Shown here: positions 7,603 to 45,626 of the stretch, piece after piece
Numbering within the stretch: the stretch's first letter is position 1
How the letters are laid out: each line of letters begins with the position of its first letter
DNA from: Desulfobacterales bacterium
GTDB lineage: Bacteria; Desulfobacterota; Desulfobacteria; Desulfobacterales; C00003060
DNA: 54,977 bases
Assembly (NCBI GenBank): GCA_023129535.1
Contig: JAGMBW010000071.1
Span: 1 to 54,977 of the forward strand
Direction: 5' to 3'
Notes under the pieces: generated by a model
The model's database searches: none
What the model was told of the DNA's origin: nothing
The model's input: the letters and a program-made list of their open reading frames with translations, nothing else
Made by a program: the position numbers and the translations under genes

Positions 7603-7681
7603 GGGGGCGTAGTTCAGTTTGGTTTAGAACGCCGGCCTGTCACGCCGGAGGTCGCGAGTTCGAGTCTCGTCGTCCCCGCCA
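7603..7681 (+). tRNA. tRNA-Asp (anticodon GTC), CCA encoded
   Basis: GGGGGCG acceptor, anticodon loop CTGTCAC, T-loop GTTCGAGTC. The integrase gene lies immediately 3', a classic integration target. Confidence 0.9.
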
Positions 7682-8806: not shown

Positions 8807-9023
8807 ACAAAGCCCTCCTCGTAGTACGCCAGGATCCACCTACTTTTGCGGCAGGCAATATCTTGCGGCGCATTAACGCCCTGACTGTTTCAGGAGCAAG
8901 GGATAATTCGTTTGCCACCTGTTCCGGCGTAAGTATAGCGTTGTCTTGTTTCCCAGTCAATTTCAAAGGAAACCTACCAAATTGGGATAAACATTTTCTC
9001 TTTTCAGTGTACCAGTAGAGCAA
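8640..9023 (-). CDS. Excisionase-family (MerR/Xis-like) helix-turn-helix protein; start uncertain
   Basis: ILTPEQVANELSLAPETVRALMRRKILPAAKVGGSWR is a typical Xis HTH. The ATG called at 9023 lies inside a -24/-12 promoter-like element, so a downstream TTG (about 8966 or 8960) is more likely. The 3' tail overlaps int by about 166 nt in another frame. Confidence 0.55.
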   Translation of the reverse strand: MLYWYTEKRKCLSQFGRFPLKLTGKQDNAILTPEQVANELSLAPETVRALMRRKILPAAKVGGSWRTTRRALYGYLEEQMGLAGRVRAEGRENNGQRVLPIQRRGKTVDKARKSPSERETSEIFFPR

Positions 9024-9034
9024 GTGCTGTGCCG
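9019..9034 (-). promoter_or_regulatory. Sigma-54 type -24/-12 element (CGGCAC-N5-TTGCT) upstream of xis
   Basis: The minus strand reads CGGCACAGCACTTGCT with correct GG-N10-GC spacing. It sits in the same position as the better element at 25832-25847, downstream of the 12-mer block. Confidence 0.4.
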
Positions 9035-9120
9035 TATTTGGTAAGCTGTAGAAATCACAGGGATTGTATGCAGAGAAGGCAAGTTGGAGGGGGCATAAGG
9101 CGTGAAATTTTCGAGGATCA

Positions 9121-9390
9121 GGTTCCGATAAAATCGTAACCAGTGAAATTTATTAACAATTAAGAGGTTCCGATAAAACAAGACGAGGTTCCGATAAAAT
9201 GCCGTGAAATTTCCAAGGGTTACACGCCATAAGGGAAGGCTAAGTTGTTGTAAGGTTCCGATAAACCTGTAAGCTATGGAATTTTCAGGAAATTGATAGG
9301 TTCCGATAAAATTGGGATAGGTTCCGATAAAATTGGGTGTAGTTTCAGTGGGTTACAATAAATAGAGGAATCATGAGGTTCCGATAAAAT
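9121..9390 (+). repeat. Left block of 7 direct copies of the 12-mer GGTTCCGATAAA (putative enhancer or operator array)
   Basis: Copies start at 9121, 9166, 9187, 9254, 9299, 9320 and 9377, with spacings of 45/21/67/45/21/57. The block is collinear with 25921-26190 at an offset of exactly 16800 nt for at least six copies. Confidence 0.85.
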
Positions 9391-12355: not shown

Positions 12356-14677
12356 CCTTAGTTTCGCACTTTGAGTCCGGAAGAATTCACGACTTTTCTT
12401 GTTTATTCAATAAAATTAAGATGTTATAGAGAGAGGCTTTTCTTGGGTAATTTTTAACTATCTGATATTATTAATAAAACTTTTTGCAAAACAAATGTAG
12501 TACCTGTACAGCCTCCCCCGATATTTTATTTTTGTCTTGACAATGCCCCGTTTTTCGGTATCCTGAAAAAAATTTTGGAGAGCGAAAATGTTTTTCAGGG
12601 AAAATCGATCAAAAAATTCAAAACTACCTGTATCGCAATTAGTTGAAAATATTCGAACCGCCAGAGGCCCGAGGGTTCGTATCGTGGTATCTCTGGGTAC
12701 CAGGTTCAAAATTCCTAAGTCAGACCGGAGTGCGGTTGCACGTATTGTGAAAGAGCGGCTTTCCGGTCGGCTGTCATTATTTTCATACGATGCGCAGTTG
12801 GTTAGGTATGCGGACTATATCGTAAAAAAGATACAGACTGAGGGGAAATGGGATTCGGCGCGGCAGCGAGTGGCTGAATTCAAGGAGTCCGATCGGCAAA
12901 CAGCGGAGATTTTTGTTGAGGATGTAGAACATGGATATACCAGGGAATTGGGACCGATACTGATTGGCGATACATTTTGGAGCCGTTTGAATTTTCCTTC
13001 AATATTGCGTGAATATGGGTTTCGGGAGAGCGAGATAAAGACAGCAGAGATTTCGGTATTGAATCGTTTGATTTCCCAGGACAGTGAGAATGGGATTATT
13101 TCCTGGTTAGGGACGGTAGCCGTTGATGAATTGCTTGGTATTGATTTCATGCAATTTGGCCATGACCGATTTTATCGCATATCGGATAAGTTGTTGAAGC
13201 ATCAATCGTATATAGAAGAAGAGTTGTATCAACGGGAAAAAGACCTGTTCAGTCTTGAGGATTGCATATTCTTATATGATTTGACGAATACCTATTTCGA
13301 GGGTGTATGCGCAAGGAATCCGAAGGCGAAATATAGCAAGAATCAAAAGGAGAAGCGAAGTGACTGTCCGCAGGTAGTGGTAGCGCTTGTATTGGATGGT
13401 GATGGTTTTATTCGACGTCATCCTGTCTTCGAGGGAAAGATGTCGGATTCAAAGTCGTTGGGCCATATTGTGGGGGAATTGGCAAGTGAGTTTTCAGATA
13501 AAGCGATGCCCACGATCGTTTTTGACAGAGGGATGGTGACGGAAGAAAACATCGAACTTTTAAAGAGCTATGAGAATTTGAAGTACATTGTGATGTGCCG
13601 CAGTAACGAAGAAGAGCAGTTTATAGGCACATTCCAAAGGGAAGAATTCCATATTGTAGAAGGCAGAGACCCAAAAAAGAAAGTGGAAGTAATGATAAAA
13701 CCGGCAGCCGACATCGTTTATTTGTTGTGCAAAAGTGAAGGACGCAAAAACAAAGAGCAAGGGATGCGCAATAATCGTGAAAAAAAGCTGGAAAAGGAAC
13801 TGACAAATTTGCAGAATCAGATTCAAAAGGGGAGAGAAAATAATCCTGTCAAAATCGAACAAAGAATCGGTCGTATTAAAGAGCGGTTCGGCAAGGTGTC
13901 GCAATATTATGAGATCATGTATACCCATCGGGAATTTTCATATACACTTCCTGAAGATGTAAAAATTTCCAAACGAGTTTCAAATTCTCTTGCGAAGCTG
14001 AAAGAAAAAGCAAACGGCAATACAATCACCTTTCCGGCACTTGAAAAAAAACTGGCCGTTATGCAAGAGAAATATCCTTCTGATTTTGATAAAATCAAGA
14101 TGCACTTAATTGCACCAGCGTTGAGCTGGGAACCCATCGAGGAGATTCGTGAAAAAGAGGCGGGATTGGATGGAAATTACCTTTTGAAGACAAATCGGAC
14201 AGACTTAAATGCCGACGAAATATGGAAGTTGTATGTGATGCTAACTCGGATAGAAAACGCATTTCGGGATTTAAAGTCGTATCTTGGCTTACGCCCGAAC
14301 CCACATCACAGAGAAGACCGTGTCGATGGGCACATATTTATTTCAATCCTTGCGTATCATCTGCTTCATTCGATCGAATATATGTTACGAGTACAGGGTG
14401 TACATTCCCGCTGGGCAACAATAAAACGCGTGGTGAGCACACATGATTATTCGACCGTTCAGCTGCCGACAACCAGCGGTCCGGTAATCAATATCAGGAA
14501 GCCCAGTATGCCCGAAGGCATCCATATGGACATTTACGATAAGCTGGATGTAGACTACAAACATTTGCCGGTGAGACGCAACCTCGCCTGATTGAAAAAA
14601 ACTAAGGCGAGTCTGTAGTACCTGTATCTGTAAGGCATTGGCAATATTGTTCTTTTTATCAAAATGCGAAACCAAGG
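12356..14677 (+). mobile_element. Insertion sequence (IS1634/IS4-type, about 2.3 kb) inserted in the apex of a module-B hairpin
   Basis: Terminal inverted repeats are CCTTAGTTTCGCAC... and ...GCGAAACCAAGG. The flanks reconstitute the uninterrupted hairpin loop GTTTCTAGGAGAC. The target duplication is CTAG, or TA if the IS ends are taken as GCCTT...AAGGC. Confidence 0.8.
12588..14591 (+). CDS. DDE transposase, IS1634/IS4 family
   Basis: 667-aa ORF filling the IS. N-terminus MFFRENRSKNSKLPVSQLVENIRT... and a C-terminal LKSYLGLRPNPHHREDRVDGHIFISILAY block, typical of IS4/IS1634 DDE-K transposases. Confidence 0.8.
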   Translation: MFFRENRSKNSKLPVSQLVENIRTARGPRVRIVVSLGTRFKIPKSDRSAVARIVKERLSGRLSLFSYDAQLVRYADYIVKKIQTEGKWDSARQRVAEFKESDRQTAEIFVEDVEHGYTRELGPILIGDTFWSRLNFPSILREYGFRESEIKTAEISVLNRLISQDSENGIISWLGTVAVDELLGIDFMQFGHDRFYRISDKLLKHQSYIEEELYQREKDLFSLEDCIFLYDLTNTYFEGVCARNPKAKYSKNQKEKRSDCPQVVVALVLDGDGFIRRHPVFEGKMSDSKSLGHIVGELASEFSDKAMPTIVFDRGMVTEENIELLKSYENLKYIVMCRSNEEEQFIGTFQREEFHIVEGRDPKKKVEVMIKPAADIVYLLCKSEGRKNKEQGMRNNREKKLEKELTNLQNQIQKGRENNPVKIEQRIGRIKERFGKVSQYYEIMYTHREFSYTLPEDVKISKRVSNSLAKLKEKANGNTITFPALEKKLAVMQEKYPSDFDKIKMHLIAPALSWEPIEEIREKEAGLDGNYLLKTNRTDLNADEIWKLYVMLTRIENAFRDLKSYLGLRPNPHHREDRVDGHIFISILAYHLLHSIEYMLRVQGVHSRWATIKRVVSTHDYSTVQLPTTSGPVINIRKPSMPEGIHMDIYDKLDVDYKHLPVRRNLA

Positions 14678-14678: not shown

Positions 14679-15210
14679 TAGGAGACATCGTTTTCACCGA
14701 AGGCCTCTGGGGTTTTGTGTGGCGAGGTATCTGCTTGGCGCCGTGGCGATCCCCGTGGCCAGGAGTCGGTCCGGCGGAGTCGGTCCGGCTGGGATGGATC
14801 TGGTTTTTTAGCGCGCTGTTCCTGGACAGTGCGCTTTGGGTGGGCAGCGGCGTAAGGCGCGTGAACTGGGGGCCGTAGGTGAAATCGTTGTCTCCGTTTC
14901 TAGGAGATATCGTTTTCACCGAAGGCCCTTCCTTTTTGGGTGGGTAGTTTCAAAAAAGGCGTCACGATGTGGGGATGGTGGTAAATACTGGCTGGGTTTG
15001 GGTTTATGGGTCAGAGACAGTATTGATGACCATCCCCATATCGTGGCCACCACCAGGCTCTTTTAAGTCCCCTATGAGGGGATTTAGGGGTGGGTAGGGG
15101 TCAAAAAAATTGCGTCACCGCGTGGGGAGGGCCATAAATACTGCCTGGCTTTGGGGTCTCTGGGTAACAGGCCGTATTTATGGCGGGGCCCCCATGTAGT
15201 GACATCCTCC
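14679..15210. repeat. Mosaic hairpin array, right part (continues after the IS)
   Basis: Contains the second half of the interrupted module B, module B at about 14866, module C at about 14955 and 15112, and module A at about 15061. Confidence 0.8.
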
Positions 15211-15494
15211 AGTAAGGGCGGGTGGGTGGGTTAATCTCTTCGTTGCGAGTTTCGTTAGGGATGTAAACTCTTTGCCGGAAATGGATAGGAGTTGCCAGGA
15301 TGCGTGGAGGCATAGGACGGGTATGTGTTTTGGGTGGATCGATGCTGTAAACTTTTGGAATTCAGAGCGTGAAATATTCATCAAAATATTCATGTGAGCT
15401 GTGGTGAAACACTTTGACAAGGACACCTGGTGAAAGGGTTTGGCAACGGCAGTGCCAGGCGCGCGGGTTAATGTCTTCGTTGCCACTGGAGATG

Positions 15495-17160: not shown

Positions 17161-17433
17161 TTATTGGCCACCCCTTTTTAGGGAACGCCCTGGTTTGAAA
17201 TGGGGGTATTTGCGTGCGGGGATGTTGATTGTCTTGCCGCTCTTGGGATTTCGTGCTTTTCGAGCCTTTCTATTTTTTACGTAGAATTTCCCAAAACCTC
17301 TGAGAACAATGGCATCCCCGTTGACCAGTAGATTGGTTACGTTGGACATAACACTATCCAGGGCCTTGGCTGCTAAGGGCCTCGTAATATCCAGGTCTTC
17401 AGCTATGTTCGCGACAAGTTCCGTTTTGGTCAT
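17161..17433 (-). CDS. HU/IHF family DNA-binding protein
   Basis: MTKTELVANIAEDL...GDAIVLRGFGKFYVKNRKARKARNPKSGKTINIPARKYPHFKPG. Confidence 0.9.
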   Translation of the reverse strand: MTKTELVANIAEDLDITRPLAAKALDSVMSNVTNLLVNGDAIVLRGFGKFYVKNRKARKARNPKSGKTINIPARKYPHFKPGRSLKRGGQ

Positions 17434-17450: not shown

Positions 17451-17798
17451 TTACTTTTTTCTGCTAGTCTTTTTCTTTTTGGGCTTTGCCTTTGGTTTTA
17501 CCTTGGGCTTGGCCAACACGTTTTTGGCAACAGCCTCTTTCAGTGGCTGTCCCGGCTTGAAGCTTACCCTCACGCCTGGTGCGAAAGTTACTTTCTTGCC
17601 GGTCAGAGGGTTAATGCCTTTCCTCTCAGGTACGGGGTTCACCTTGAAGGATCCAAAGCCAGGAAGCTTCAATGCCCTTTTCCTTGCCAGGATCGCCTGG
17701 ATCACATCGAGCAGTATCGCCAGATATGCTCCAGCATTGACCTTGGTCACCTTAGCCTTTGTGGCGAATTTGGTTATGACTTCTTCTCTATCTGTCAT
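17451..17798 (-). CDS. HU-like DNA-binding protein with a lysine-rich C-terminal tail
   Basis: LPGFGSFKVNPVPERKGINPLTGKKVTFAPGVRVSFKPG followed by KPKVKPKAKPKKKKTSRKK. Confidence 0.8.
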   Translation of the reverse strand: MTDREEVITKFATKAKVTKVNAGAYLAILLDVIQAILARKRALKLPGFGSFKVNPVPERKGINPLTGKKVTFAPGVRVSFKPGQPLKEAVAKNVLAKPKVKPKAKPKKKKTSRKK

Positions 17799-22743: not shown

Positions 22744-23766
22744 TCATTGGGACCTCTCGTTGGTTCTGTAGTCCGGTCCTTCAAAGTGAAGAACTCTGGC
22801 CATCCCGGCAAGGCGGGAGCTGATCCTGCCGTCTATCTTCTCTGCAATCTCGTCCAGGGAGAGGTTCGAGGTTACAACAGTGGGCTTGAGGTGACTGTCC
22901 CGCTGGTAGATGATGTAGTCCAGGGTCTGCCTGGCCCACTCGGTGGTCTTTTCCACACCTAAATCATCCAGGATAAGGAAGTCGCAGGACGAATACTTGC
23001 GGCAATGGAATTCCTCGCTGTCAGTGGCTCCGGAATGAAATGCCCTTCTGATTTCAAGCAGGAGTCCGGGCACTGAAGTGAACAGCAGATCGTTGTCCTG
23101 CAGCAGTAGCTCCCTGGCAATCGCAGCGGCCAGGTGGGTCTTGCCTGTACCGTAGCTGCCATAAAGAAAGAGGCTGTTTGCAGGCCTGGCAGCCTCCGGC
23201 CCGTTGGGGCCTACGCGCCGGAGGGCATATTCTTTACAGATCTTCGCATTTTTTTGGTTGAACCTGGTTGTCTTGAAGTTCTCAAAAGAACATCCCAGGT
23301 ATTTGGGAGGAACACCTATCCTCTTGAGGTGGGACCCTATGTTGTTTCCGATCTCTTCTAACTTTCTCTTCCTCTCCTCGATTTCCCGTTGTTCCTCGGA
23401 GCAGCGGCTGCACATTCCGTTCTTGGGCTCAAAGTGAGGCCAGAGCCACCTGCTGGATAAATTGCTCCATTCGGGAGAAGATAGCGTGCCACATCTCTTG
23501 CATTTCAGATCCTTTGGCCTCTGATTCGGCAGAGGCGGCCTTTTCCCTGCCTTGCATCGCCTGGCCTGTCCATCAATCGGCGAAGCCTGGCGGGCACTGG
23601 CGGGCAGGTCTTTAGCGCAAGCCTCACTTCGTGCCCTGCTAATAGTCTTTGCCGGGGACGGGGCCACTGTCGATAGGGTAGTCGCTTGGGAGGTCGAAGC
23701 CCTTCCTGCCTTGTTTCTTTTTTCCAAAAGGCGTTGATTTGCGAGCAGGATATCCGTCTCGTTCAT
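22744..23766 (-). CDS. DnaC/IstB-like AAA+ helicase loader with an N-terminal Cys-rich extension; start uncertain
   Basis: Walker A GSYGTGKTHLA and Walker B FLILDDLG, followed by VVTSNLSLDEI. The called start overlaps the upstream gene by 128 nt. Confidence 0.8.
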   Translation of the reverse strand: MNETDILLANQRLLEKRNKAGRASTSQATTLSTVAPSPAKTISRARSEACAKDLPASARQASPIDGQARRCKAGKRPPLPNQRPKDLKCKRCGTLSSPEWSNLSSRWLWPHFEPKNGMCSRCSEEQREIEERKRKLEEIGNNIGSHLKRIGVPPKYLGCSFENFKTTRFNQKNAKICKEYALRRVGPNGPEAARPANSLFLYGSYGTGKTHLAAAIARELLLQDNDLLFTSVPGLLLEIRRAFHSGATDSEEFHCRKYSSCDFLILDDLGVEKTTEWARQTLDYIIYQRDSHLKPTVVTSNLSLDEIAEKIDGRISSRLAGMARVLHFEGPDYRTNERSQ

Positions 23767-24799
23767 ATTGCTCTCCTTTCTTTGTCCTGGCTTGCCTTAT
23801 CTCAAGGGCCTTTCTTAGCCAGTTGGTAACTGAGGCCTTGAAATTGGATTTGGGAAACTTATTGGTTTTTTTCTTCTCTTTTTTCCTGTGCTCAGTCTCC
23901 AGCCAGTCGTGCCAGTTGTGCAGTTCGTCTCTTAGGTCAAGCTGGCTGTAAGTGGAGTTTCCGTCTATCCGCTTCTCAAACCACTTTACATCTTCAGGCC
24001 TTACATCAAACTCCGAATACGTCTTGATGACCTCTAAGAATTGAAGTGCGGCAAGAGAAGGTGGAGGTGCGGTATTGCTAGCTAATGGGTACCCATCTAG
24101 AGAATATTCTTCTTCGTTCTTATGCACTTCTTCTAGATTATTAGTAGTATTGTTTTTAATACTGTCTTTAACTGTTTTTAAGCTATGTTTTTCCTTAGTT
24201 ATTTCAGCTTGTTGAGATACCGCGAGGTTGCCGTTTTGGCAAGTTGAACTTGCCGTTTTGGCAACCTCCTGGTTGCCGTTTTGGCAACCTGGAGGCAGGT
24301 GGTTTTGACCTGGAGGCGTGCTTCGGCATACTTTACTTGCCGTTTTGGCTACCCGTTGTCTGTTTTTCTCAATAGTCTCGGGTTCTTTCTGACTCCTGCC
24401 TCGAAGGTTTTTACTTGCCGTTTTGGCAACCTGATCGAAAAAATCTTCATGTCTACTTGCCGTTTTGGCAACCTTCCAGTTTTTGTAATGCTTATTAAAC
24501 CAATATTTATGGGGGTTTGAGGGGTCTTGCTTGATTACGTGCTTCGAGTGAAGGGAACTTGCCGTTTTGGCTACGTGAGAAAGATGAATGTTGGCAAAGA
24601 AAGCAATCTCTGATTTTGTGAGCAAGGCGAACTTTTTCCCACAGCCATAAGAGAAGCGGAGAATCACATCTATTACTTTTCGTTCTCTCTTAGTGAAGTC
24701 AGAACACATTATGGCCTCCCAAAGCTCGTTAGAGATCTGTATGTAGCCGTTTTCTAGCTGGGGTGTGCCTCGTTTTCGGTTTTTAAGTGTATCTTTCAC
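23639..24799 (-). CDS. Phage lambda O-like replication initiator (Phage_rep_O type N-domain)
   Basis: NGYIQISNELWEAI...FTKRERKVIDVILRFSYGCGKKFALLTKSEIAFFANI matches the rep_O winged-helix pattern. The gene contains the iteron array. Confidence 0.75.
   Translation of the reverse strand: MKDTLKNRKRGTPQLENGYIQISNELWEAIMCSDFTKRERKVIDVILRFSYGCGKKFALLTKSEIAFFANIHLSHVAKTASSLHSKHVIKQDPSNPHKYWFNKHYKNWKVAKTASRHEDFFDQVAKTASKNLRGRSQKEPETIEKNRQRVAKTASKVCRSTPPGQNHLPPGCQNGNQEVAKTASSTCQNGNLAVSQQAEITKEKHSLKTVKDSIKNNTTNNLEEVHKNEEEYSLDGYPLASNTAPPPSLAALQFLEVIKTYSEFDVRPEDVKWFEKRIDGNSTYSQLDLRDELHNWHDWLETEHRKKEKKKTNKFPKSNFKASVTNWLRKALEIRQARTKKGEQYERDGYPARKSTPFGKKKQGRKGFDLPSDYPIDSGPVPGKDY
24228..24575. repeat. Seven iterons (ACTTGCCGTTTTGGCAAC; core palindrome TTGCC-N5-GGCAA) inside the initiator gene; putative replication origin
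   Basis: Copies are at about 24228, 24250, 24273, 24337, 24415, 24457 and 24559. In frame they encode repeated VAKTAS peptides. Confidence 0.75.
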
Positions 24800-24843: not shown

Positions 24844-25548
24844 TTATGCCGGCCATTGTTGTACAAACTCGCCTTCCCAATAAGGCCGGAGGTTATGTTT
24901 CATGAAAATAGGCAAGTTAAACTTTGTTGCCTGGTGAAGTATGTTCCGGATCCAGTTCTTTTCAGGTGCATGTTGCCCGGCGCCGGGGCCGGTCATCGCG
25001 CCGACAATGACCCAATTGATCCACCACAGAGCGTTGTAGTTGGTGTAAACAAGATCCAGCAGGGGCTCGTAGCTGAGGAATGTAATATTTGGGAGGTCCG
25101 CTAATGCCGTGGCATTCCAGTAGCTGGCTTCGAAGCTATCTGCGGTTGCTCCCAGCCAGCAATTTTGTGGAAAGTGGAAGTGGTGGTATGTGATCGGGTT
25201 CTTGGTTAAAAACAAGAATGTATGCTGAGGGCATTTCCTGACGATGCTTAAAACGGATAGAATCCAATTGGGGGGAACCCAGTCTCCAAACAGATCACCC
25301 ATTGAACATACAAAGATCCTGGTGGGTTTTTTCCATTGGGAAGGGAGGGCAAGGCGTTGAGGATGAAACGTGGGGATAAAGGGATCATCAGGGGGGTACC
25401 CGTAGCGTCCACGGAGTCTGTTTGCCATGCGATGCGCATAGCAATAAAAACACCTGTTCGGTCTTTCGGGTGACCCTTCTGGTCCCCAGCAACCGGTCAC
25501 AGGATTCCAGGTCCTGGTTGTCCAACCTATGCTTTCTTTAATACCCAT
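24844..25548 (-). CDS. Phage Gp37/Gp68 family protein (DUF5131)
   Basis: IGWTTRTWNPVTGCWGP...CFYCYA N-terminal signature. Confidence 0.8.
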   Translation of the reverse strand: MGIKESIGWTTRTWNPVTGCWGPEGSPERPNRCFYCYAHRMANRLRGRYGYPPDDPFIPTFHPQRLALPSQWKKPTRIFVCSMGDLFGDWVPPNWILSVLSIVRKCPQHTFLFLTKNPITYHHFHFPQNCWLGATADSFEASYWNATALADLPNITFLSYEPLLDLVYTNYNALWWINWVIVGAMTGPGAGQHAPEKNWIRNILHQATKFNLPIFMKHNLRPYWEGEFVQQWPA

Positions 25549-25599: not shown

Positions 25600-25791
25600 T
25601 CATCCCCGGTTTTCTTCATTGATGGTTTTCTCTTTCAGCCAGTCGAGCACCTCTTTTTGATCAAACCTGACCTTGCCGCGTGGGAGTCGGAGATAAGGAA
25701 TAAGGCCGAGGTGACAATATTTTGCGACAGTCCTTGGGCTAAGCCTCAGGAAGTTGGCCAATTCCCTGGTAGTGAGAAGAATCCTTTGCAT
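25600..25791 (-). CDS. Excisionase-family HTH DNA-binding protein
   Basis: LLTTRELANFLRLSPRTVAKYCHLGLIPYLRLPRGKVRF. AAGGAG Shine-Dalgarno site upstream. Confidence 0.8.
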   Translation of the reverse strand: MQRILLTTRELANFLRLSPRTVAKYCHLGLIPYLRLPRGKVRFDQKEVLDWLKEKTINEENRG

Positions 25792-25831: not shown

Positions 25832-25847
25832 AGCAAGTGGTGTGCCA
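25832..25847 (-). promoter_or_regulatory. Sigma-54 promoter (TGGCAC-N5-TTGCT) driving the HTH/Gp37/rep operon
   Basis: The minus strand reads TGGCACACCACTTGCT, an exact consensus with exact spacing, about 40 nt upstream of the ATG at 25791. Confidence 0.65.
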
Positions 25848-25890
25848 CTTCTGTAAGTCTTTGAAATTCAAGGAGGTTTTGTTGGAAGGA

Positions 25891-26260
25891 AAGTTTATCG
25901 GAACCAATTTTGGGGGATCAGGTTCCGATAAAATTGTAAGTGCTGGAATTTATTGGAAATGAGTTGGTTCCGATAAAATTATACGTGGTTCCGATAAAAT
26001 GCTGTGAAGTTTCCAAAGGTTACAGACCATAAGGGAGGGCTAAGTTGCTATAAGGTTCCGATAAACCTGTAAGCTATGGAATTTTCAGGAAATTGATAGG
26101 TTCCGATAAAATGAGGATAGGTTCCGATAAAATTCCGTGCAGTTCCAATGGGTTACGAAACATAGAAAATCACGAGGTTCCGATAAAGTTCCGATAAAAG
26201 TGAAAGCTATGGAACATTAAGAGAATTTGGCGGGTTCCGATAAGGTTGCGATAAGACGTA
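25891..26260 (+). repeat. Right block of the GGTTCCGATAAA 12-mer: 9 direct copies, 1 degenerate, 1 inverted (putative enhancer/UAS)
   Basis: Direct copies start at 25921, 25966, 25987, 26054, 26099, 26120, 26176, 26188 and 26233. There is a degenerate copy at 26244 and an inverted copy at 25895-25905. The block overlaps the 3' end of the activator gene. Confidence 0.85.
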
Positions 26261-27586
26261 GCGCCTGGTCTTATTGGTGCCCTCGGCTTTTAGTAATCCT
26301 GCCTGTATCATCGAGGTGAGGTGCTTTCTGATTGCTCTATCTGAGATGTTAAATACTCGAAGGTCCTTACTCGTGATCGTTTGCTTGCTCCTGGCTATGT
26401 TCAGAATAGCCTCTTGTGTGGGGTTCAGGGCGTCCCGCCCGGCATCCGCCTGAGGTGAAGCCGATGACGGACGGGGAGGCCTGGCCGCAACGCTCTCGCC
26501 TGGCCGCCATCGCTTTCGCTCAGGCGAGGCGGGCGGGCTTGCAAGGCCGGCCGGCGAAGCCGATGGCGCACGGGCACGAGCCCTCCGGGGCGTAGTCCCC
26601 TCTCTCCGAGCCATCGGCTCATATGAGCCAGAGGCCGGGACGGAGTCGGGCAGCCCCGCCCGCCTCGCCTGAGCGAGAGCGGTGGCGGGCAGGTTGTGAG
26701 GGAGGATGTCCCGAATTTGGTTCAACCCGATGATTCTTTTGCCCTGGGATAGGATCACTCCCCTGCTGACGACGTTTTCCAGCTCCCTGACATTTCCGGG
26801 CCAGGGATACTGTTGAAGAAAATCCATGGCATCTTTAGAAAACCGTTTAACGTCTTCGCCGTGCCTGCGATTGTATTTGGCAATAAAGTGCGCTATCAGA
26901 TGGGGAATATCTCCTGTTCTTTCTCTCAGAGGAGGCACCTCAAGAGAAAACTCATTTAGCCGGTCATAGAGATCTTCTCTGAATGTTCCTTTTTCCATGG
27001 CTTTGTCCAGATTCTTGTTTGTGGCTGCGATCACCCTGACATCTACATTGATTGCGTGAAGGGATCCTATGGGCCTTACCTCGCCGTCCTGGAGAAACCT
27101 CAAGATCGATCCCTGGGCATTCTGGCAGAGGTCCCCTATCTCATCCAGGAATATGGTGCCAGTGTCTGCGGCAGGAATGAGGCCGACTCTTGTTGAGGTC
27201 GCACCGGTAAAAGCCCCCTTTACATGGCCGAATAGCTCAGAGGCCAAAAGGTCCCTGCCAAGAACCGCGCAGTTTATCTTGATAAAGGGCCTCTTGTTCC
27301 TGTGACTTAAGCTGTGGATGGCGTCGGCCACAAGCTCCTTTCCCGTTCCTCTTTCTCCCCGGATCAGGACCTTTACGTCTTTGGGGCCGATGGTCTTAAC
27401 AAGATGAAGAAGCCCCACCATGGGTGGGCTGGTACCGATTATCTTGACCTGCCCGACTCTGTCCCGTGGGGGACTACGCCCCGGAGGGCTCGTACCCTTC
27501 CGCCTCTGGTTTTGCCCCGAACGAATGCGGGGCGGGCCTCGTAGCGGGACGCGGGAGGGTTTTTTGAAACGTTGCGGATTGGCCAT
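26207..27586 (-). CDS. Sigma-54-dependent transcriptional activator (bEBP) without a receiver or sensor domain, with a P/A/R-rich linker and a C-terminal winged-helix
   Basis: GERGTGKE Walker A, intact GAFTGA (HVKGAFTGATS), FLDEIG, REDLYDRL, WPGNVRELEN. The C-terminus ILNIARSKQTITSKDLRVFNISDRAIRKHLTSMIQAGLL looks like a wHTH rather than a Fis-type HTH. Confidence 0.9.
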   Translation of the reverse strand: MANPQRFKKPSRVPLRGPPRIRSGQNQRRKGTSPPGRSPPRDRVGQVKIIGTSPPMVGLLHLVKTIGPKDVKVLIRGERGTGKELVADAIHSLSHRNKRPFIKINCAVLGRDLLASELFGHVKGAFTGATSTRVGLIPAADTGTIFLDEIGDLCQNAQGSILRFLQDGEVRPIGSLHAINVDVRVIAATNKNLDKAMEKGTFREDLYDRLNEFSLEVPPLRERTGDIPHLIAHFIAKYNRRHGEDVKRFSKDAMDFLQQYPWPGNVRELENVVSRGVILSQGKRIIGLNQIRDILPHNLPATALAQARRAGLPDSVPASGSYEPMARREGTTPRRARARAPSASPAGLASPPASPERKRWRPGESVAARPPRPSSASPQADAGRDALNPTQEAILNIARSKQTITSKDLRVFNISDRAIRKHLTSMIQAGLLKAEGTNKTRRYVLSQPYRNPPNSLNVP

Positions 27587-28233
27587 GGATCTTATCCCGC
27601 CGGCTCTCCACTAATGTTAGAGGTTGGAGGAGCGCTTCGCTTGAGGACCGTTTCACTTGAAGCATAAGCAAGAAAATAGTTTGCCTCAAACCTCAAGCGT
27701 AGTGGTCCTCAAGTCCGCCAAAGGCGGACGCTACTCCAACCTGTGCTCTGCCTGCTCCGGCCTGCCCTGTGGGGAAGCCTGCCCTGGTGCGACACGACCC
27801 CAACAATCTTTTAGGGAGGCAAACCCGGTCTGGGCCAGGGAATGATCGTATCGGGGTGAGGAGGCCTGCCCTGGTACGGTTCCGCCCTGCGGCCCGCCCA
27901 GGTGCGGACTGGGCCAGGGTCTGGGCCAGGGAACGACCATACTGGGGTGAGAGATAAAACAACGCGCGTACAGGCTCATCCATTGATAAAGATGGCATGG
28001 CAGCCAGAGCATGAGGGTTTGGGAATGAGGATGAAATATTCTAATTCGATTTTGGCCTTACCATTCACTATTACAAGCTCCGTGCCACAGGAAAAAAACC
28101 TAGTCCTTTCAGCATATTAAAAATGACACCCGCCCGAAACTTCGGCAAAATGCCCATTTTCTTCGGAAGACGAAGAGATCGTTCATTGACATCAATCGAT
28201 TGTTCAGGTATGCGAATCTGTAGTTTAGACCTA

Positions 28234-28373
28234 GGTTCAGCGGTTCAACGTTCAGAGGTTAAAACCGCGAACCATGAACCCTGAACCGTGAACGGTAGCA
28301 TGGGTATTGTGCTGTAAAGTGATAGATGTCAATAGATTATAACCTTTGAACGTTGAACCCTGAACCGTGAACC
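28234..28373. repeat. (GGTTCAN)n / (GAACCNT)n heptamer arrays in the divergent promoter region
   Basis: Read directly from the sequence. The same family recurs at 34750-34795. Confidence 0.75.
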
Positions 28374-28439: not shown

Positions 28440-30845
28440 ATGTCGGACATCGTTTTTCCTTTTGTTCAGGATTTTCTGGAAGAAAAGCGCGGGACACTCT
28501 ATGTGCTCAGTGATTCCCACGTTCGTCTGCGTGATCCTCTCGCCATTTTGTGTCTGTCTCGCTTTTTTGCCGCGCATAGTGTGGATTTGAGAATCGCAGG
28601 CGTTCTCGCAGAACACCGCCGATCATTCGATGAAACAGATATTCTGCACGCTCTTGAGGACGCGCCTGAGCTTCGAGCGGAAACACAAGACCTCTTCAAG
28701 AAAGGTTCACTTGAGAAGTGTGTGAAAGGACTCTTCAAGAATGCCGAAAAAGCACACAGACAAATGCTGAAACAGGGAAACCACTGCCCGCGACTCGAAC
28801 CGCGAGGCCCTGTTTTAGTCATTGGCCGTCCCCAACTTTATCCTAAGAGATTCCTGGACAAGGTTGCGAGTGAACTGCTCGAATGTGGCCATCGGCATGG
28901 AGTTGACGGGCGCTTTCGGTGCTTATCAGACGATCCAGATGATCCCCTCGAAGAGTTTCGTGCAATCACCGACAACTATTCAGGGATTACCATTCCGTGC
29001 GTACCGTTTTTCGAACACTCAAATTCAGAGGAATCTTACAGTGACTACGGCATCATCCGGATGCTGGCAGGCTCTTTCCGTCATCGAAGCTTTCTTTTCG
29101 TTTATGGAACCAGCACATTGGGTACTGTGGCTGCTGCGCAAGCGGTGATTGACCCGGATCAGAACCACGTTTTCAACCAATTAGGCGTCCCGTCCTTTTT
29201 CAACAAATACAGGTCGGTAGAAGTCCTGCTTCGCGCAGAACGCCGCTCTTCTTTCTTCGCGCCCTGGGTCAGCGAGTTTGAACCGAAGCAGATAAGACTC
29301 GTCGGCAGTCCTGTGGCGCCGGTTTCAAGCCAGGCAACGGAGTGGGTCAATAAGTTCACAACGGCAGAACCCGGTAAACCGATTGGCGATTTATATGAGC
29401 GCGTTGATCCGGATCCTCATGAACCAGTGACCAGATTCAAGATAGTCGGTCTTCATCCCTCGAAGGATAGGGTCTGGCATATGGTGGGTGGCAGCGAAAT
29501 AAAGGAAGTCTCCAGCTACCTTCAGGAGCCTGCCGAGACAGAGGAATGTAGAGCCATTCTTCTTGTCGGCCCCATAGGTGTGGGCAAAGAGCTGGTTGCG
29601 CGCATCCTTTTTGAAGAAAGAGTACGTCAACTGCTGCGCGAATTGGCGAGCAAGAAAGCAGAGGTGCCCGCCCCGGTTGTGGTCGGACCCCGTTACGTTG
29701 CCGTCAATTGCGCTGCTTTGGTGAGAGACCTGGCCGAATCGCAGCTTTTCGGCATCGCAGACCAATCTGCGACCAACGTTCGTGGGAGCTACGGCGCAAT
29801 CCTCGGGGCAGGAGAAGGTATTATTCTGCTCGATGAGCTTGAGAGCATGGCCATGGAGATGCAGGCCAAGCTCCTTCGCGCCATCCAACCACCCTACTCT
29901 GTCACACCGGTTCAAGCAATCGACCCGGTACCCTGTTCAGCCCTTTGCGTGGCAGCCACGAGCGAGGAACCTGACTTGCTCGTGTCAAAAGGACGGATGC
30001 GTGCGGACCTCTACTCAAGGTTCCGCTCCTGCATCGTCAGAATCCCCTCTCTGGCTCAGCGTCCGGGTGATATTCCTGCGCTCCTGGCTTACATCGCTGG
30101 TAAGCCGGTCCGCTTTGACGAACGTGTTCTACGGTGTTTGCTGGCAGACAGGCACCCCCACAATGTGCGAGGACTCTTCGGCATTATCGGCAGGGCTCGA
30201 CGACGCCAGCAACTTGAGAAAGCAACTGCCACTGGCCATGCTTTGACGATAGCACTGGAAGACCTTGACGAAGAGATTCGCAATGTATTCAATGACGTGT
30301 ATAAGGAGGTTCGCGAACAGCGCCCCAGGCCGGACACGCTCCAACTCTTCGAATTTGAGGTTGAGGACCCCCCTTTTTCTCCAACCGTGCAGGATCTGTT
30401 TGAAGAGGCAGCCCTGATTCTGTCTTTTGTCGGGGCCAACGACAAGGGCGAGGTATACGTTCGTGCTCCGGTAAAGGGGTACGAACACATCTGGTCGAAG
30501 CTGCAAAAAGAACAGGCAAAATCCAGGGCAAAGCGCAAGGGCTCGATTCCCGAGGATACGAAGGAATACGGCAGGCGGTGGTTCAATCTCGTGGAGCGCG
30601 GAGTTCGATCGCTTGAAGGTAAACAGCGTGATTATGCATTGAGAATCCTTGGTGAGATGTTCAGTCTGCGGTGTTCAGGACGCACCAGAAGAGGCAGCAA
30701 AATCACGGACGTCTTCGTGTGGGGCTATCGCAAAAACCGTGGTGTGGCCCAGAAAGAGTATGCCACGTCTTTGAACATGGCGGAGAACACATTCTCCGAG
30801 CGATTGGCGAACCTGAGAAATGAAAGGAAATCAAAATCTTCATAA
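28440..30845 (+). CDS. 801-aa bEBP-like AAA+ protein lacking GAFTGA, with an unassigned ~370-aa N-terminal domain
   Basis: GPIGVGKE Walker A, ILLDELE Walker B, RADLYSRF arginine-finger region and RPGDIPALL. The GAFTGA position reads FGIADQSATNVRGSYG. Confidence 0.8.
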   Translation: MSDIVFPFVQDFLEEKRGTLYVLSDSHVRLRDPLAILCLSRFFAAHSVDLRIAGVLAEHRRSFDETDILHALEDAPELRAETQDLFKKGSLEKCVKGLFKNAEKAHRQMLKQGNHCPRLEPRGPVLVIGRPQLYPKRFLDKVASELLECGHRHGVDGRFRCLSDDPDDPLEEFRAITDNYSGITIPCVPFFEHSNSEESYSDYGIIRMLAGSFRHRSFLFVYGTSTLGTVAAAQAVIDPDQNHVFNQLGVPSFFNKYRSVEVLLRAERRSSFFAPWVSEFEPKQIRLVGSPVAPVSSQATEWVNKFTTAEPGKPIGDLYERVDPDPHEPVTRFKIVGLHPSKDRVWHMVGGSEIKEVSSYLQEPAETEECRAILLVGPIGVGKELVARILFEERVRQLLRELASKKAEVPAPVVVGPRYVAVNCAALVRDLAESQLFGIADQSATNVRGSYGAILGAGEGIILLDELESMAMEMQAKLLRAIQPPYSVTPVQAIDPVPCSALCVAATSEEPDLLVSKGRMRADLYSRFRSCIVRIPSLAQRPGDIPALLAYIAGKPVRFDERVLRCLLADRHPHNVRGLFGIIGRARRRQQLEKATATGHALTIALEDLDEEIRNVFNDVYKEVREQRPRPDTLQLFEFEVEDPPFSPTVQDLFEEAALILSFVGANDKGEVYVRAPVKGYEHIWSKLQKEQAKSRAKRKGSIPEDTKEYGRRWFNLVERGVRSLEGKQRDYALRILGEMFSLRCSGRTRRGSKITDVFVWGYRKNRGVAQKEYATSLNMAENTFSERLANLRNERKSKSS

Positions 30846-31031: not shown

Positions 31032-31372
31032 CACGCCTTTCACGTTAGTTGCACGGGTTGGGTTAAATCCGCAATCCGAAATCCGCAATCCGAAATACTA
31101 CGAAATACCGTACCTTTTGATGCCCCTTTCCTGGACAGGCTGCAACTCCTCCCCCCACCTGGCTTAGAGCAACGATTCAGGGGTCAAAAATGCTGTTCTA
31201 AGGTCAAAAATGGACTCTTTTTTGACGCCTTCTTTCGGAATATCAACGCGTTAGCAAGGTCCGACCCCAAAGACTCAAAGACACAGTTATGTCTGGGAAT
31301 AACGGAGGGGTAATCAGAGAGGAAAAGGCCATTTTGGAAGAGCAGACGGTAGCGTCTTCGGAGAAGCTGGTA

Positions 31373-31714
31373 TCATTCTATTGCCAGGACAACAGCCAGT
31401 GCTTCGGTGATATCCTGCATAGCTGCTTCAGACAGTTTTCCTGTTCGCTGAACAAATCTTGCCTGCGATAACGAACGTACCTGAAAGGCGTCTGCCGCCG
31501 AAGGCTTATCCAAACCATTTTCCGCATCGGGGTCGAGCCGAACCATCCACGGTGCCACAGCATACCTATCTTTCCACTTGGTTATCGGCACGATAACCTT
31601 CAACGGCAAAATCCCAACGGCATCATCATTCACAATGACTGCGGGGCGTGTCTTCTTGATCTCAGCACCCATGGTTGGGTCCAAATTGATCCGCCAGACT
31701 TCGCCCCTATGCAT
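31373..31714 (-). CDS. mazF: MazF/PemK family toxin endoribonuclease
   Basis: MHRGEVWRINLDPTMGAEIKKTRPAVIVNDD...LKVIVPIT. Confidence 0.88.
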   Translation of the reverse strand: MHRGEVWRINLDPTMGAEIKKTRPAVIVNDDAVGILPLKVIVPITKWKDRYAVAPWMVRLDPDAENGLDKPSAADAFQVRSLSQARFVQRTGKLSEAAMQDITEALAVVLAIE

Positions 31715-31946
31715 GAAAAGCCTCACCGTCAAGAACTGTAAAGCTGGTCAGTTCATCATCTTTTTCATAATCTGGAAGTAAGGCCTCAGCAGCAGCAGCC
31801 AATTTTTGTTTTCTTTCTAGCTGAGTTAGTGGCTGTTCAATTTTTTGAAAATCTTCTTGAAGTTGATGTATAGCAGCTTCAATTATTTCCAGCCGCTCTC
31901 TGGCCGAAAGGTTCTTGAGCTCTTCCAAAATCGCTGTCTGTGCCAT
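31707..31946 (-). CDS. Antitoxin (addiction-module component) partner of MazF
   Basis: The ATG at 31946 is preceded by AAAGGAGG. It overlaps the mazF start by 8 nt. The product is a small acidic helical protein. Confidence 0.7.
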   Translation of the reverse strand: MAQTAILEELKNLSARERLEIIEAAIHQLQEDFQKIEQPLTQLERKQKLAAAAEALLPDYEKDDELTSFTVLDGEAFHA

Positions 31947-32145
31947 ACTGCCTCCTTTATCTCTTCTTTCTTCTTTCGGATCGGAACCGGAACAGTGTCG
32001 GTTCAAATCAACCCATAGAGTTTTGGATAACCAGCTTAATTTAAGTCGAAATGATATGCAACCTAAATCCGCCTTCAGCGGCTTGGAATCCGCAATCGGC
32101 AATCCAAAATCCTATAGCTATCCTCCTTTTCCCACATGGACGCTT

Positions 32146-34517: not shown

Positions 34518-34803
34518 CCATCTTTCTTCTTCTGGCTTCTACCCACAGATATAGAAACTTCTTCCTTACTCTTGATGCAGTCCTCATCTGGATTGTTGGG
34601 TTGAGCGCAGGGTTGCGCCTGACGGCTTGAGAACATTACACTTCGTGTCGTTCCTCCCCGCCTGCCAGCGCCACGTACCGCATCGAGTTTACATGCTGGC
34701 ATCTCTGGCAATGGCGGGCAGGAACCCAACCTACTCCTGCGGCTCTCCAACCGTGAACCCTGAACCCGTGAACCGTGAACCCTTGAACCGTGAGCGGTTA
34801 CAT

Positions 34804-37475: not shown

Positions 37476-39793
37476 GATCGTTTATCCTTATCGCCAAATA
37501 CAATTTCACCCATCTTGTTCAAATCAGCTACCCCCCGGACCTCATGGGGAAACAAGGGAACTTTTGTTACAATACGGGCGGGAAACCTTGAATGAATCTT
37601 TTTCATATATCCCTGCTGCTCCATCCTTTTGCAGGAGCAAAAATCACAATCCGTTTGGGGAATGACCATGTTGATTGCGATGTGATTACAGGGGACCCTG
37701 GCGCTCTCCAAGGCGTCTACAAGTCGTTCCAGCTCAAGAAAGCCCATGGCCTCAGGGATAGTCACCGCGACAAAAGCCGTTCTTTTGACGTCCACGAATG
37801 CCTCCTGAATCCTCCTCACATTCCTGGACATGGCCAGTGCCTTTTCAGCGGCCTTGGCCAACCTGACCACTCCCCTGTATTTCAACAACAACCTGAAAAA
37901 TGCCTTCAACCATTCCCTGACCATATCAGGAAGCTCCAAAAAGCGAAGAAGGTGGCCGGTGGGAGAGGTATCCAGGATAAAGATATCAAATTTTCCTTCC
38001 TTCTTCAGATCCATGATCATATCCAGGGCCATGATCTCGTCGAGACCCGGCGGCGCAAGGGTAAACAGTTCCGTCATGACCTCACGGTCGAATTTTATAT
38101 CAACGCCGCTGGTCAAAAATCTGTCGAAGAGTGCTTCTATGTCTTTCTTGTACCCCTCCTTGAAATCCTCAAACAACTTATCCGCATCTATCTCCAAAGC
38201 GAAAAGATTGGTATTGACAGGTCCAAGGTCCGAGGTCCAATGTCCAAGGTCCGAGGAGTTGTCCAAAGTCCGAGGTCCAATGTCCAATGTCTTTCCATGG
38301 TTACCTGCTGACTTTGGACTTTGGACTTTGGACTTTGGACCCATCACTTCCGACTTTGGACTTTGGACAGTTCTTGGACTTTGGACTTTGGACGTTGGAC
38401 TATAATCTATTGGCGTCACCTTATCCCCAATCGTCAACTTAAACGAATCGGACAGGGAATGGGCTGGGTCCGTGGAGAAAACAAGGACCTTTTTTCCTGG
38501 ATTACATCGCGCCAAATGAAGTGAGGCGGCTGAAGCAAGGGAGGTCTTGCCCACTCCGCCCTTGCCGCCAAAGAGGACAAATTCGAGATCGGGATCGAGG
38601 GTCAGATACGCCTGGGGCTCTTCATCAGTCTGAGCTACCTTCGGCAGTCTGTAAGGCTTGCCCTTTCCTAAGAGATAGTCCGCCAGGCCTTTCAGTTCTT
38701 CGACCCCTCGGATCTCCCTGGGAAACAACGGGACTTTTATCAAATTATATAGTGAAAAAACATCTTCGATTTCGGACAAAGGCTCCCTTTGATCCTCTTT
38801 TTTTGCTGTGCAAAACGCACAGCCTTCGCTATCCCCGACCCTGTTGACGACAATCTCCTTCACCGGGATGTGGTTCTTGTCCAGACTGCTCAGGAGTCTC
38901 CTGGTCTCATATATACTCATTGGCTCCGGAATAGTCACCGGAACGAACCGGGTTATCTTCTCGTTCGAGAGGAGCTTTTTAACCCTATCAATATCCGAGG
39001 AGAGGTTGTCGAGGAAAATATCACACTCATCTTTGACATACCTTTTTCCGGTAAAATGGGCAGCCATGTAACGGTGCTTGTGCTGCATCAGATCCATAAC
39101 CTCAACCCATTTCAGCATCTGTTCGGGAAGGGCAAGCATCCGCATGGTGTGCCCGGCCGGGGCAGTATCCACTATCAGGATATCATAACTTCCCTCCTTC
39201 AAAATATTGGCTATCTCGATGATGGCCATGACCTCATCCATGCCCGGAAGCGAAAGGTCGAAAAATTCGGCAATGTCCTGCTGGTCAAAATAGGTTCCCC
39301 TCTTCGCAAGTTTCTTCATTACGGGATCATTCTTCTCTCTGAACTCCTCTAACAACCTGTTTGCATCTAACTCACGCGCAAACAAGTTTGCGCGGTCCGA
39401 TGTCCGTTGTCCAATGTCCAATGTCTGATGTTGTCCGATGTCAGACGTCCCGCCATGATCCCTGCCCGAGCTTGGACTTTGGACCTTGGACCTTGGACTT
39501 TGGACTTTGGACCTTGGACGCATCACTTCTGACTTTGGACTTTGGACTTTGGACTTTGGACTATAATCTATTGGTGTGACTTTATCCCCTATCTCTATCC
39601 CAAAGCTATCGCCCAGGGAATGGGCCGGATCGGTCGATATGACCAACACCTTCTTGTCGCTGGGATAAGACCGGGCCAACTGCACAGCCGCAGCCGCAGC
39701 CATGGTAGTCTTGCCCACGCCGCCCTTTCCACCGAACAGGATCAAGCGCAGGTCTCTGTTCTGAAAATATTCAGGTACCCTGCGGGAAATCAT
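37472..39793 (-). CDS. Tandem (two-domain) ArsA/Get3-family ATPase with repeat-encoded insertions in both halves
   Basis: Two GGKGGVGKT(T/S) P-loops, two STDPAHSL motifs and two DT(A/S)P(A/T)GHT(M/L)R switch motifs. Insertions are at 39389-39568 and about 38215-38400. Confidence 0.9.
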   Translation of the reverse strand: MISRRVPEYFQNRDLRLILFGGKGGVGKTTMAAAAAVQLARSYPSDKKVLVISTDPAHSLGDSFGIEIGDKVTPIDYSPKSKVQSPKSEVMRPRSKVQSPRSKVQSPSSGRDHGGTSDIGQHQTLDIGQRTSDRANLFARELDANRLLEEFREKNDPVMKKLAKRGTYFDQQDIAEFFDLSLPGMDEVMAIIEIANILKEGSYDILIVDTAPAGHTMRMLALPEQMLKWVEVMDLMQHKHRYMAAHFTGKRYVKDECDIFLDNLSSDIDRVKKLLSNEKITRFVPVTIPEPMSIYETRRLLSSLDKNHIPVKEIVVNRVGDSEGCAFCTAKKEDQREPLSEIEDVFSLYNLIKVPLFPREIRGVEELKGLADYLLGKGKPYRLPKVAQTDEEPQAYLTLDPDLEFVLFGGKGGVGKTSLASAASLHLARCNPGKKVLVFSTDPAHSLSDSFKLTIGDKVTPIDYSPTSKVQSPRTVQSPKSEVMGPKSKVQSPKSAGNHGKTLDIGPRTLDNSSDLGHWTSDLGPVNTNLFALEIDADKLFEDFKEGYKKDIEALFDRFLTSGVDIKFDREVMTELFTLAPPGLDEIMALDMIMDLKKEGKFDIFILDTSPTGHLLRFLELPDMVREWLKAFFRLLLKYRGVVRLAKAAEKALAMSRNVRRIQEAFVDVKRTAFVAVTIPEAMGFLELERLVDALESARVPCNHIAINMVIPQTDCDFCSCKRMEQQGYMKKIHSRFPARIVTKVPLFPHEVRGVADLNKMGEIVFGDKDKRS
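38215..38400. repeat. Palindromic heptamer array (GTCCAAN)n...(TTGGACN)n translated in frame within ArsA half 2
   Basis: Read directly from the sequence. It encodes ...SKVQSPRTVQSPKSEVMGPKSKVQSPKS...TLDIGPRTLD...HWTSDLGP. Confidence 0.85.
39389..39568. repeat. Palindromic heptamer array translated in frame within ArsA half 1
   Basis: Encodes DYSPKSKVQSPKSEVMRPRSKVQSPRSKVQSPSS...TSDIGQHQTLDIGQRTSD, at the same structural position (after GDKVTPID) as in half 2. Confidence 0.85.
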
Positions 39794-39807
39794 TATTGAA
39801 AATTCCT

Positions 39808-40716: not shown

Positions 40717-40718
40717 TT

Positions 40719-41261: not shown

Positions 41262-41272
41262 TTTGTTAACCT

Positions 41273-42355: not shown

Positions 42356-42371
42356 GAGTTATTCCTCCTTT

Positions 42372-43751: not shown

Positions 43752-43813
43752 CTCTTCTGCTCCTGTTTAACGCCCCCTACAGCTTTTGTCCCTTCTTAAT
43801 GTTCTTTTGGCTT

Positions 43814-45622: not shown

Positions 45623-45626
45623 TATT

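Follow-up and report, generated by a model that had tools for sequence, protein, structure and literature searches.

A candidate sigma-54 switch before the replication and integrase genes of a phage-derived integrative element

What is a sigma-54 promoter, with an array of repeated sites and the gene of a sensor-less activator beside it, doing in front of the early genes of a mobile element? The question arises on contig JAGMBW010000071.1 of the Desulfobacterales assembly GCA_023129535.1, which was analysed over its whole length (54,977 bp; referred to here as the window). Sequence analysis supports a phage-derived integrative island beside a tRNA-Asp gene, with a predicted integrase and excisionase. 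The promoter, the array and the activator had been noticed from the nucleotide sequence and its open reading frames (ORFs), without database searches, and put forward as a candidate switch for this element. Our results point to an activator-gated sigma-54 switch that would control excision/integration and replication of the ~20.5-kb element together, and we give this reading a probability of roughly 0.7.

Promoter P_B, array B and the activator

The whole window was scanned with the sigma-54 promoter motif TGGCAC-N5-TTGCW and compared with shuffled sequences. The candidate promoter P_B, TGGCACACCACTTGCT, is the only match without a mismatch, in agreement with the exact -24/-12 consensus reported in the original prediction; allowing up to two mismatches, there are 35 matches against 26.5 expected, and thus no overall enrichment of the motif. 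The 3' end of P_B lies 41 nt from the ATG (position 25791) of the first gene of an early operon (about 40 nt had been estimated). This operon had been read as HTH-Gp37/68-repO-dnaC-like, and its genes do match the HTH_17, DUF5131, Phage_rep_O and IstB/DnaC-like domains, respectively (coordinates of all features are in Table 1).

Upstream of P_B is array B, built from copies of the 12-mer TTTATCGGAACC (as written on the transcribed, minus strand). From its composition, the window should contain about 0.007 exact copies by chance; with up to two mismatches, the 12-mer matches 21 times (expected, 4.8), a count not attained in any of 100 shuffles. The nine direct, one degenerate and one inverted copies counted originally are resolved as seven exact and two one-mismatch direct copies, one two-mismatch copy and one exact inverted copy. 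Start-to-start spacings run 11, 46, 11, 56, 21, 45, 67, 21 and 45, with 21 and 45 each occurring twice, as had been noted. The core of the array consists of two tandem 133-bp units with three sites each, spaced by 21, 45 and 67.

The next gene upstream encodes a bacterial enhancer-binding protein (bEBP). Pfam assigns it the Sigma54_activat domain (PF00158, 1.8e-62) and AAA_lid_14 (PF25601), with no domain match N-terminal of residue 49 and no match to HTH_8, the Fis-type helix-turn-helix (HTH) that is typical, although not obligatory, for bEBPs. The GAFTGA loop (residues 124-129, encoded at 27217..27200) is intact, and the absence of a receiver or sensor domain is as first described. Relatives have GAFTGA or GSFTGA, and the Walker A (GERGTGKE) and Walker B (FLDE) motifs and conserved arginines are invariant across the clade alignment. 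The protein scores below every bEBP equivalog cut-off of NCBIfam (NifA, NorR, RtcR, NtrC, PspF, ZraR and others); the best score is for NifA (317 bits, cut-off 529), and PspF reaches 249 bits (cut-off 444).

Profile comparison, structure prediction and fold search agree in supporting the earlier view that a winged helix replaces the Fis-type HTH at the C-terminus. The profile matches the winged-helix proteins PF0095, AdcR and HlyU in the PDB, the AlphaFold2 model (predicted local distance difference test score, 80) has a helix-strand-helix-helix-hairpin order (H-b-H-H-b-b), and Foldseek with this model returned AdcR, ZitR, MarR and ArsR at template modelling (TM) scores of ~0.7. The 3' end of the activator gene had been said to overlap the site array; its last 16 codons (…LSQPYRNP…) indeed run through the two distal degenerate sites of array B, and in the closest relatives the activator tail LSELYRN is literally encoded by TTATCGGAACTTTATCGGAAC.

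The activator of the window is longer than other clade members (~324 amino acids) because of two inserts, the N-terminal 47 residues and a linker of ~85 residues. The insert DNA (26440-26700 and 27440-27560) is a single GC-rich palindromic repeat present twice, in frame and in opposite orientations (arms 26553-26600 with 27469-27516, and 26499-26542 with 26650-26693; inverted repeats I1, I2 and I5). The linker insert is partly shared with protein P0002 from another sample and is thus not an assembly artefact. GC-rich repeats also occur upstream of the gene, and a very stable hairpin lies ~35 nt before the start codon (27620-27742, minus strand; minimum free energy of the region -90 kcal/mol, z = -5.5); it has no Rfam match and no U-tract, and could be a repetitive extragenic palindromic (REP)-like element or a regulatory structure. 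A near-consensus sigma-54 motif, TGGCACGGAGCTTGTA (28087..28072, minus strand), is found ~485 nt upstream of the activator gene with no 12-mers nearby. This motif is not conserved, and no conserved sigma-54 promoter was found upstream of the bEBP gene in relatives.

Table 1. Positions of the features discussed, in window coordinates unless a related locus is named.
Feature	Position	Strand	Remarks
Sigma-54 promoter P_B (candidate), TGGCACACCACTTGCT	25847..25832	-	-24 GG / -12 GC; exact consensus and spacing
Putative enhancer array B, copies of TTTATCGGAACC	25894..26255	-	-57 to -408 relative to P_B
Array B, exact direct copies (n=7)	25921-25932, 25966-25977, 25987-25998, 26054-26065, 26099-26110, 26120-26131, 26176-26187	-
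Array B, one-mismatch direct copies (n=2)	26187-26198, 26233-26244	-
Array B, two-mismatch direct copy (n=1)	26244-26255	-
Array B, exact inverted copy (n=1)	25894-25905
Sensor-less bEBP (459 amino acids)	26207..27586	-	AAA+ sigma-54 interaction domain at residues 49-215, followed by lid domain
Predicted C-terminal winged-helix domain (residues 384-459)	26210..26437	-	Presumed reader of the 12-mer; from profile and predicted fold
HTH_17 gene (63 amino acids), first of early operon	25600..25791	-	Excisionase-family/BldC-like; conserved in all related loci
DUF5131 (Gp37/Gp68 family)	24844-25548	-	Replication module
Phage_rep_O, RepO-like initiator	23639-24799	-	Replication module
IstB/DnaC-like loader	22744-23766	-	Replication module
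Six ACTTGCCGTTTTGGCAACC iterons	24235-24575	-	Within repO gene; repeat family D20
Second sigma-54 promoter P_A (candidate), CGGCACAGCACTTGCT	9034..9019	-	One mismatch (first T); aligns with P_B
Putative enhancer array A, seven exact and one degenerate TTTATCGGAACC	9121..9388	-	21/45/67 spacing as in array B
xis-like, excisionase-family HTH_17 gene	about 8640-8966	-	Downstream of P_A
Tyrosine integrase	7709-8806	-	Downstream of P_A; adjoins tRNA-Asp
tRNA-Asp	7603..7681	+	Left junction; adjoins integrase
HU/IHF-family genes (two, adjacent)	17161-17433, 17451-17798	-	Both below IHF and HU equivalog cut-offs
DDE transposase	12588-14591		Flanked by ~250-bp repeats
~250-bp repeat family	10592-12392, 14809-15108		Internal inverted repeats (GGGGGCCGTAGGTGAAATCGTTGTCTC … GAGACAACGATTTCACCGAAGGCCC)
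7-nt tandem arrays	182-218, 2633-2691, 7365-7442, 28263-28293, 31065-31096, 34749-34793, 38219-52903
CTCCG(C/T)TA(C/T) repeats	L001 7740-7920; L188 215-250, 465-495; L105 about 300-600; L004 and L104, upstream of bEBP gene
(A/T)AATCGGAACC	L001 8026; L002 5056; L003 5295; L004 7981; L008 2596; L104 5764

A second array and the related loci

The original prediction of a switch is supported by the tests made here but was incomplete, as it had overlooked a second promoter and array at 9019-9388, 16.8 kb from array B and upstream of xis and int. The regulatory regions A and B can be aligned over ~300 bp (86% identity over 261 nt), and the promoter hexamers are retained between them. Within the ungapped core of the two arrays, none of 72 site positions has changed, against 37 of 189 spacer positions (~20%; Fisher p = 4e-6); relative to the spacers, the 12-mers are therefore under purifying selection. 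Finding the same enhancer/promoter design before xis-int strengthens the switch reading. Another near-consensus sigma-54 motif, TGGCACTGCCGTTGCC (15442-15457, minus strand), falls within the 3' end of a phosphoadenylylsulfate (PAPS) reductase gene and has no 12-mers nearby.

Seven independent related metagenomic loci were compared with the window (L001, L004, L005, L008, L105, L187 and L188); L002 and L003 repeat L001, from which they do not differ in protein, sites or promoter, and L190 is a repeat of the window. All seven have the same gene order, in which the activator gene is followed by 300-400 bp of intergenic sequence with direct repeats resembling the family site consensus, TTTAWCGGAAC, then by a sigma-54 promoter and an orthologous HTH_17 gene, and further on by phage-type replication/recombination genes (DUF5131, PDDEXK, AAA_24, SMC-like, UvrD, HTH_36). 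The exact consensus promoter occurs once per locus in L001-L005, always between the bEBP and HTH_17 genes, where at most about 0.02 would be expected per locus, and L008, L105, L187 and L188 have one at the equivalent place as well. Each locus carries 5-12 sites, except L105 with two, compared to ~0.3 in shuffles. Relative to the promoter the sites lie at -240, -229, (-218), -175, -162, -145 and -99 in L001, L004, L005 and L008, and at -218, -151, -130 and -85 in the window, L187 and L188. These distances are kept even where the proteins are only ~60% identical, homology is also recognizable across loci in the C/T-rich stretch that separates the last site from the promoter, and the design of the window is retained in a relative with 78-81% protein identity.

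An identical bEBP is present in the database from a Desulfobacterales metagenome-assembled genome and on a second contig from another sample. In relatives (~310-390 amino acids, 57-82% identity), 8-12 residues precede the AAA+ domain, and the C-terminal ~60-residue domain gives weak matches to HTH_24, HTH_DeoR, HTH_11 or HTH_20. A search of 1.8 billion cluster representatives with the winged-helix domain alone yielded just 12 proteins (E <= 1e-3). Close relatives of the bEBP were not found in INPHARED phages, PLSDB plasmids or IMG/VR. Matches in the cultured phage and plasmid collections were generic AAA+ proteins at <60% identity, and none of the 201 bEBP relatives from a protein scan of IMG/VR belonged to the winged-helix clade; most of them have receiver domains, and those without a sensor have a Fis-type HTH and no consensus promoter nearby. 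A metagenome scan started from the C-terminal alignment, the peptides of which fell in the lid domain, returned generic bEBPs. Homologues at <=55% identity (L013-L016) reside in unrelated, non-mobile contexts, which limits the link with mobile elements to the clade at >=57% identity.

Site-pair patterns were also used to scan genome and viral contigs at the DNA level. The sole true relative recovered was L008 (contig JAFDIV010000007.1), the other hits being unrelated tandem 11-mers with neither a bEBP nor a sigma-54 promoter. In one unrelated, AT-rich IMG/VR contig (L012, 4819-4851), the 11-bp sequence TTTATCGGAAC/TTTATTGGAAC is repeated three times in tandem, flanked by divergent small genes. 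No bEBP or sigma-54 promoter is present on that contig, and a different DNA-binding protein may use the same core there.

Further repeats are seen around the activator gene in relatives. Direct repeats of CTCCG(C/T)TA(C/T), often 11 bp apart, precede the gene. The TCCGNTA core of these repeats is an inverted form of the site core, a hint that the activator may regulate its own gene. CTCCGYTAC repeats are absent upstream of the activator gene in the window. The conserved IIGT(S) motif with which the AAA+ domain opens is encoded by (A/T)AATCGGAACC, a near-match to the enhancer site that could be a coincidence or an internal site; the window reads ATAATCGGTACC at this place. A gene for a DEAD/ResIII helicase with Helicase_dom4_arc closely precedes the activator gene in several relatives, but not in the window.

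The proposed switch, its rivals and known systems

The sigma-54 holoenzyme sits in a closed complex until a bEBP, contacting it via the GAFTGA loop, hydrolyses ATP, and among bacterial off-switches sigma-54 promoters are the tightest known. Expression of both operons would thus require an activator that is present and active. In the proposed switch, the winged helix of the activator would read the head-to-tail copies of TTTATCGGAACC, tethering the protein 85-400 bp upstream, where it would oligomerize and open both P_B and P_A. P_B would drive the HTH_17-DUF5131-repO-dnaC early/replication operon and P_A would drive xis-int, such that the two operons would switch on together and excision/integration would be coupled to replication. 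The HU/IHF-like pair encoded on the element could possibly act as DNA-bending helpers at the sigma-54 promoters and might aid looping, although this is speculation. Because the activator has no sensor, the input would act elsewhere, either on its synthesis or via an inhibitor in trans of the PspA-PspF or HrpV-HrpS type. A broader proposal is considerably more tentative, namely that a family of phage-like integrative elements in Desulfobacterota-type bacteria achieves latency through the absolute dependence of sigma-54 promoters on an activator rather than through a CI-type repressor, with a minimal, element-encoded bEBP that has a monomeric winged helix assembling on head-to-tail arrays and jointly triggering excision/integration and replication. 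Such a family would bring a new logic to the latency switches of mobile elements and would represent a new mode of DNA recognition by bEBPs.

The identity of the protein that reads the 12-mer matters here, and on comparative grounds we favor the activator over the HTH_17 protein. The latter is a reasonable rival reader because it matches excisionase-family and BldC models: both sigma-54 operons start with an HTH_17 gene, the early one matching these models, and proteins of the Xis/BldC class (lambda Xis, BldC) bind direct repeats head to tail, for which 11- and 21-bp repeats would be suitable. The arrays would then be autoregulatory or architectural, and the bEBP would act from other sites or from solution. 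We consider this unlikely, as the HTH_17 proteins of the two operons differ, yet the sites in arrays A and B are identical, and as a DNA-binding bEBP needs sites near the promoter, where no other repeated motif is present. The comparison of L105 with the window also bears on the question. The HTH_17 protein of L105 is 81% identical to that of the window, whereas the bEBP winged helix has diverged to 41% identity (recognition helix IPSRTLRRYL vs. ISDRAIRKHL in the L105/window comparison), and the sites of L105 (ATTAACGGCAC, TTATCGGCC and TTATCGGCT) diverge more than those of any other locus. This pattern is suggestive, not decisive, of site sequences that track the bEBP and not the HTH_17 protein.

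The module could also be the fossil of a switch in a defective prophage remnant, either non-functional or not controlling mobility. Capsid, portal, terminase and tail genes were not found between 7.7 and 35 kb (PHROGs, Pfam; the genes at 35-55 kb are those of the host), GC-rich palindromes have entered the bEBP ORF twice, no attR was detected, and the DDE transposase and ~250-bp repeats at 10.6-15.1 kb look like an insertion sequence (IS)/miniature inverted-repeat transposable element (MITE) cluster acquired by the element. Nevertheless, every ORF of the module is intact with invariant catalytic motifs, the spacers diverge around 12-mers that are perfectly conserved, the identical protein recurs on the contig from another sample, the 78-81%-identity relative has the same design, and the insertions in the bEBP are in frame and in tolerant regions (N-terminus, linker), partly in common with P0002; a fossil thus has a low probability in our assessment. 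A role of the arrays as iterons of a replication origin or as a partition centromere, instead of as enhancers, is far less probable still. Multiple helically phased direct repeats close to a replication operon would fit such a role, and the centromere-binding winged-helix proteins TubR and AspA appear at lower rank in the Foldseek list. However, the repO gene carries its own, different six-copy set of ACTTGCCGTTTTGGCAACC iterons, probably a lambda-like origin within the initiator gene, which argues that the 12-mers are not the origin; moreover, a second array precedes xis-int 16.8 kb away, the array ends 85-100 nt upstream of the sigma-54 promoter in every locus, and there are no adjacent par genes.

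Several observations weigh against the proposed switch itself. The second array before int has been seen in the element of the window only, the related contigs being too short, and the covariation argument comes from a single locus, L105. The bEBP ORF has two in-frame repeat insertions which, together with the IS/MITE cluster, indicate that the element may be decaying. The gene for sigma-54, rpoN, is not in the window. Searches of the window for attR with the 3' end of tRNA-Asp/junction repeat, exact 11-mers and local alignment were all non-significant, and because no attR was found the right boundary of the element is drawn from the repeat distribution alone.

In lambda (CI/Cro) and in Gram-negative phage-inducible chromosomal islands (PICIs) activated by AlpA, a single regulator decides the expression of int/xis and replication genes. 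The proposed switch resembles these systems in having one regulator and a small HTH_17/AlpA-like gene at the head of the operon; it differs in that silence would stem from dependence on a sigma-54 activator and not from a repressor, and no CI-like repressor gene was found. Sigma-54 promoters are usually tied to the nitrogen, flagellar and stress regulons of the host. While the parts used here are classical (sigma-54 promoter, bEBP, upstream activating sequences), the apparent targets (excision/integration and replication of a mobile element), the minimal sensor-less bEBP encoded on the element and a winged helix that appears to read direct repeats are unusual.

PspF and HrpR/HrpS are alike in their AAA+ domain with GAFTGA, the lack of an N-terminal regulatory domain and upstream sites at nearby sigma-54 promoters. 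They differ in using a Fis-type HTH_8 on a pair of inverted repeats, compared to a predicted MarR/ArsR-like winged helix and direct repeats (5-12 per promoter at most loci) in the present family, which has no adjacent PspA- or HrpV-like partner and whose targets would be mobile-element genes. Sensor-less bEBPs are already known; several occur in Desulfovibrio (PMC4641369), in addition to PspF and HrpR/S. In DVU0151 of the Desulfovibrionales, a predicted winged helix replaces the Fis-type HTH (PMC4641369), making it another sigma-54 activator with a predicted winged helix in a sulfate-reducing lineage. DVU0151 has a long conserved N-terminal region and the variant GAFSEA, and is divergent from its target, a transport operon (PMC4641369), whereas members of the present family lack a sensor, are transcribed in the same direction as their target and are linked to a mobile element. 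For NorR and NtrC, nucleation of the activator hexamer upstream of the sigma-54 promoter is attributed to several enhancer sites (PMC2831303); these proteins use 2-3 dimer sites, in contrast to the 5-12 head-to-tail, monomer-type sites reaching to -400 and the duplicated 133-bp unit found here. Sigma-54/enhancer control of the replication and early genes of an integrative element had been called unusual, and we found no description of it in open-access text: sigma-54/bEBP control of early, replication or int genes was not found for prophages or integrative and conjugative elements, the nearest item being a sigma-54-type regulator annotated in passing in phage phi1422 (PMC3391216).

If the proposed switch is real, it would add a design without a repressor to the latency switches known from prophages, satellites and islands, and would tie the mobility of the element to host rpoN. 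The 12-bp site and the ~324-residue winged-helix bEBP would then form a compact orthogonal pair, possibly reusable as a tool. A bEBP clade with a non-Fis domain that seems to read direct repeats also bears on how activator hexamers nucleate on DNA.

The island and its surroundings

Because att repeats were not found, we call the element a phage-derived integrative element; the 17/19 match at 31237, considered as attR, is at chance level. The host flanks hold tig, clpP, clpX and lon on the left side of tRNA-Asp and, from 35 kb rightwards, gas-vesicle, Hsp70, ArsA and response-regulator genes. The host intergenic regions contain 7-nt tandem arrays (GACTTTG, GTCCAAN, GGTTGCA, AACCGTG and others), none of which lies within 7443-28262. 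This gap suggests an island of ~20.5 kb (roughly 7.68-28.2 kb), the right end of which would be a few hundred bp upstream of the activator gene, the rightmost gene of the element. Besides the genes discussed above, the element encodes a phage-type PAPS reductase, a phospholipase D (PLD) nuclease, an NlpC/P60 protein and a C11 peptidase. An Rfam search over the window returned just three tRNAs.

Related elements L004 (1-4900) and L104 (1-2500) also adjoin tig-clpP-clpX(-lon), on the tig side. In L004 the element meets the host beside tRNA-Leu and tRNA-Lys, and its activator end is the one closest to this junction.

Divergent from the activator gene is a gene for an 801-residue protein (28440-30845, plus strand) with a sigma-54-interaction-type AAA+ domain (1.2e-25) and large N- and C-terminal regions without an assigned domain. 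It was rejected as part of the switch, as it has no GAFTGA loop and is unrelated to the 808-residue neighbor in L002. A MazF/PemK toxin gene with a small upstream ORF follows at 31373-32102 (minus strand). The host gas-vesicle cluster (41273-51360, minus strand) encodes GvpA-domain and GvpL/F proteins, volactin, an ArsA-like ATPase, Hsp70 and a B12-radical SAM protein.

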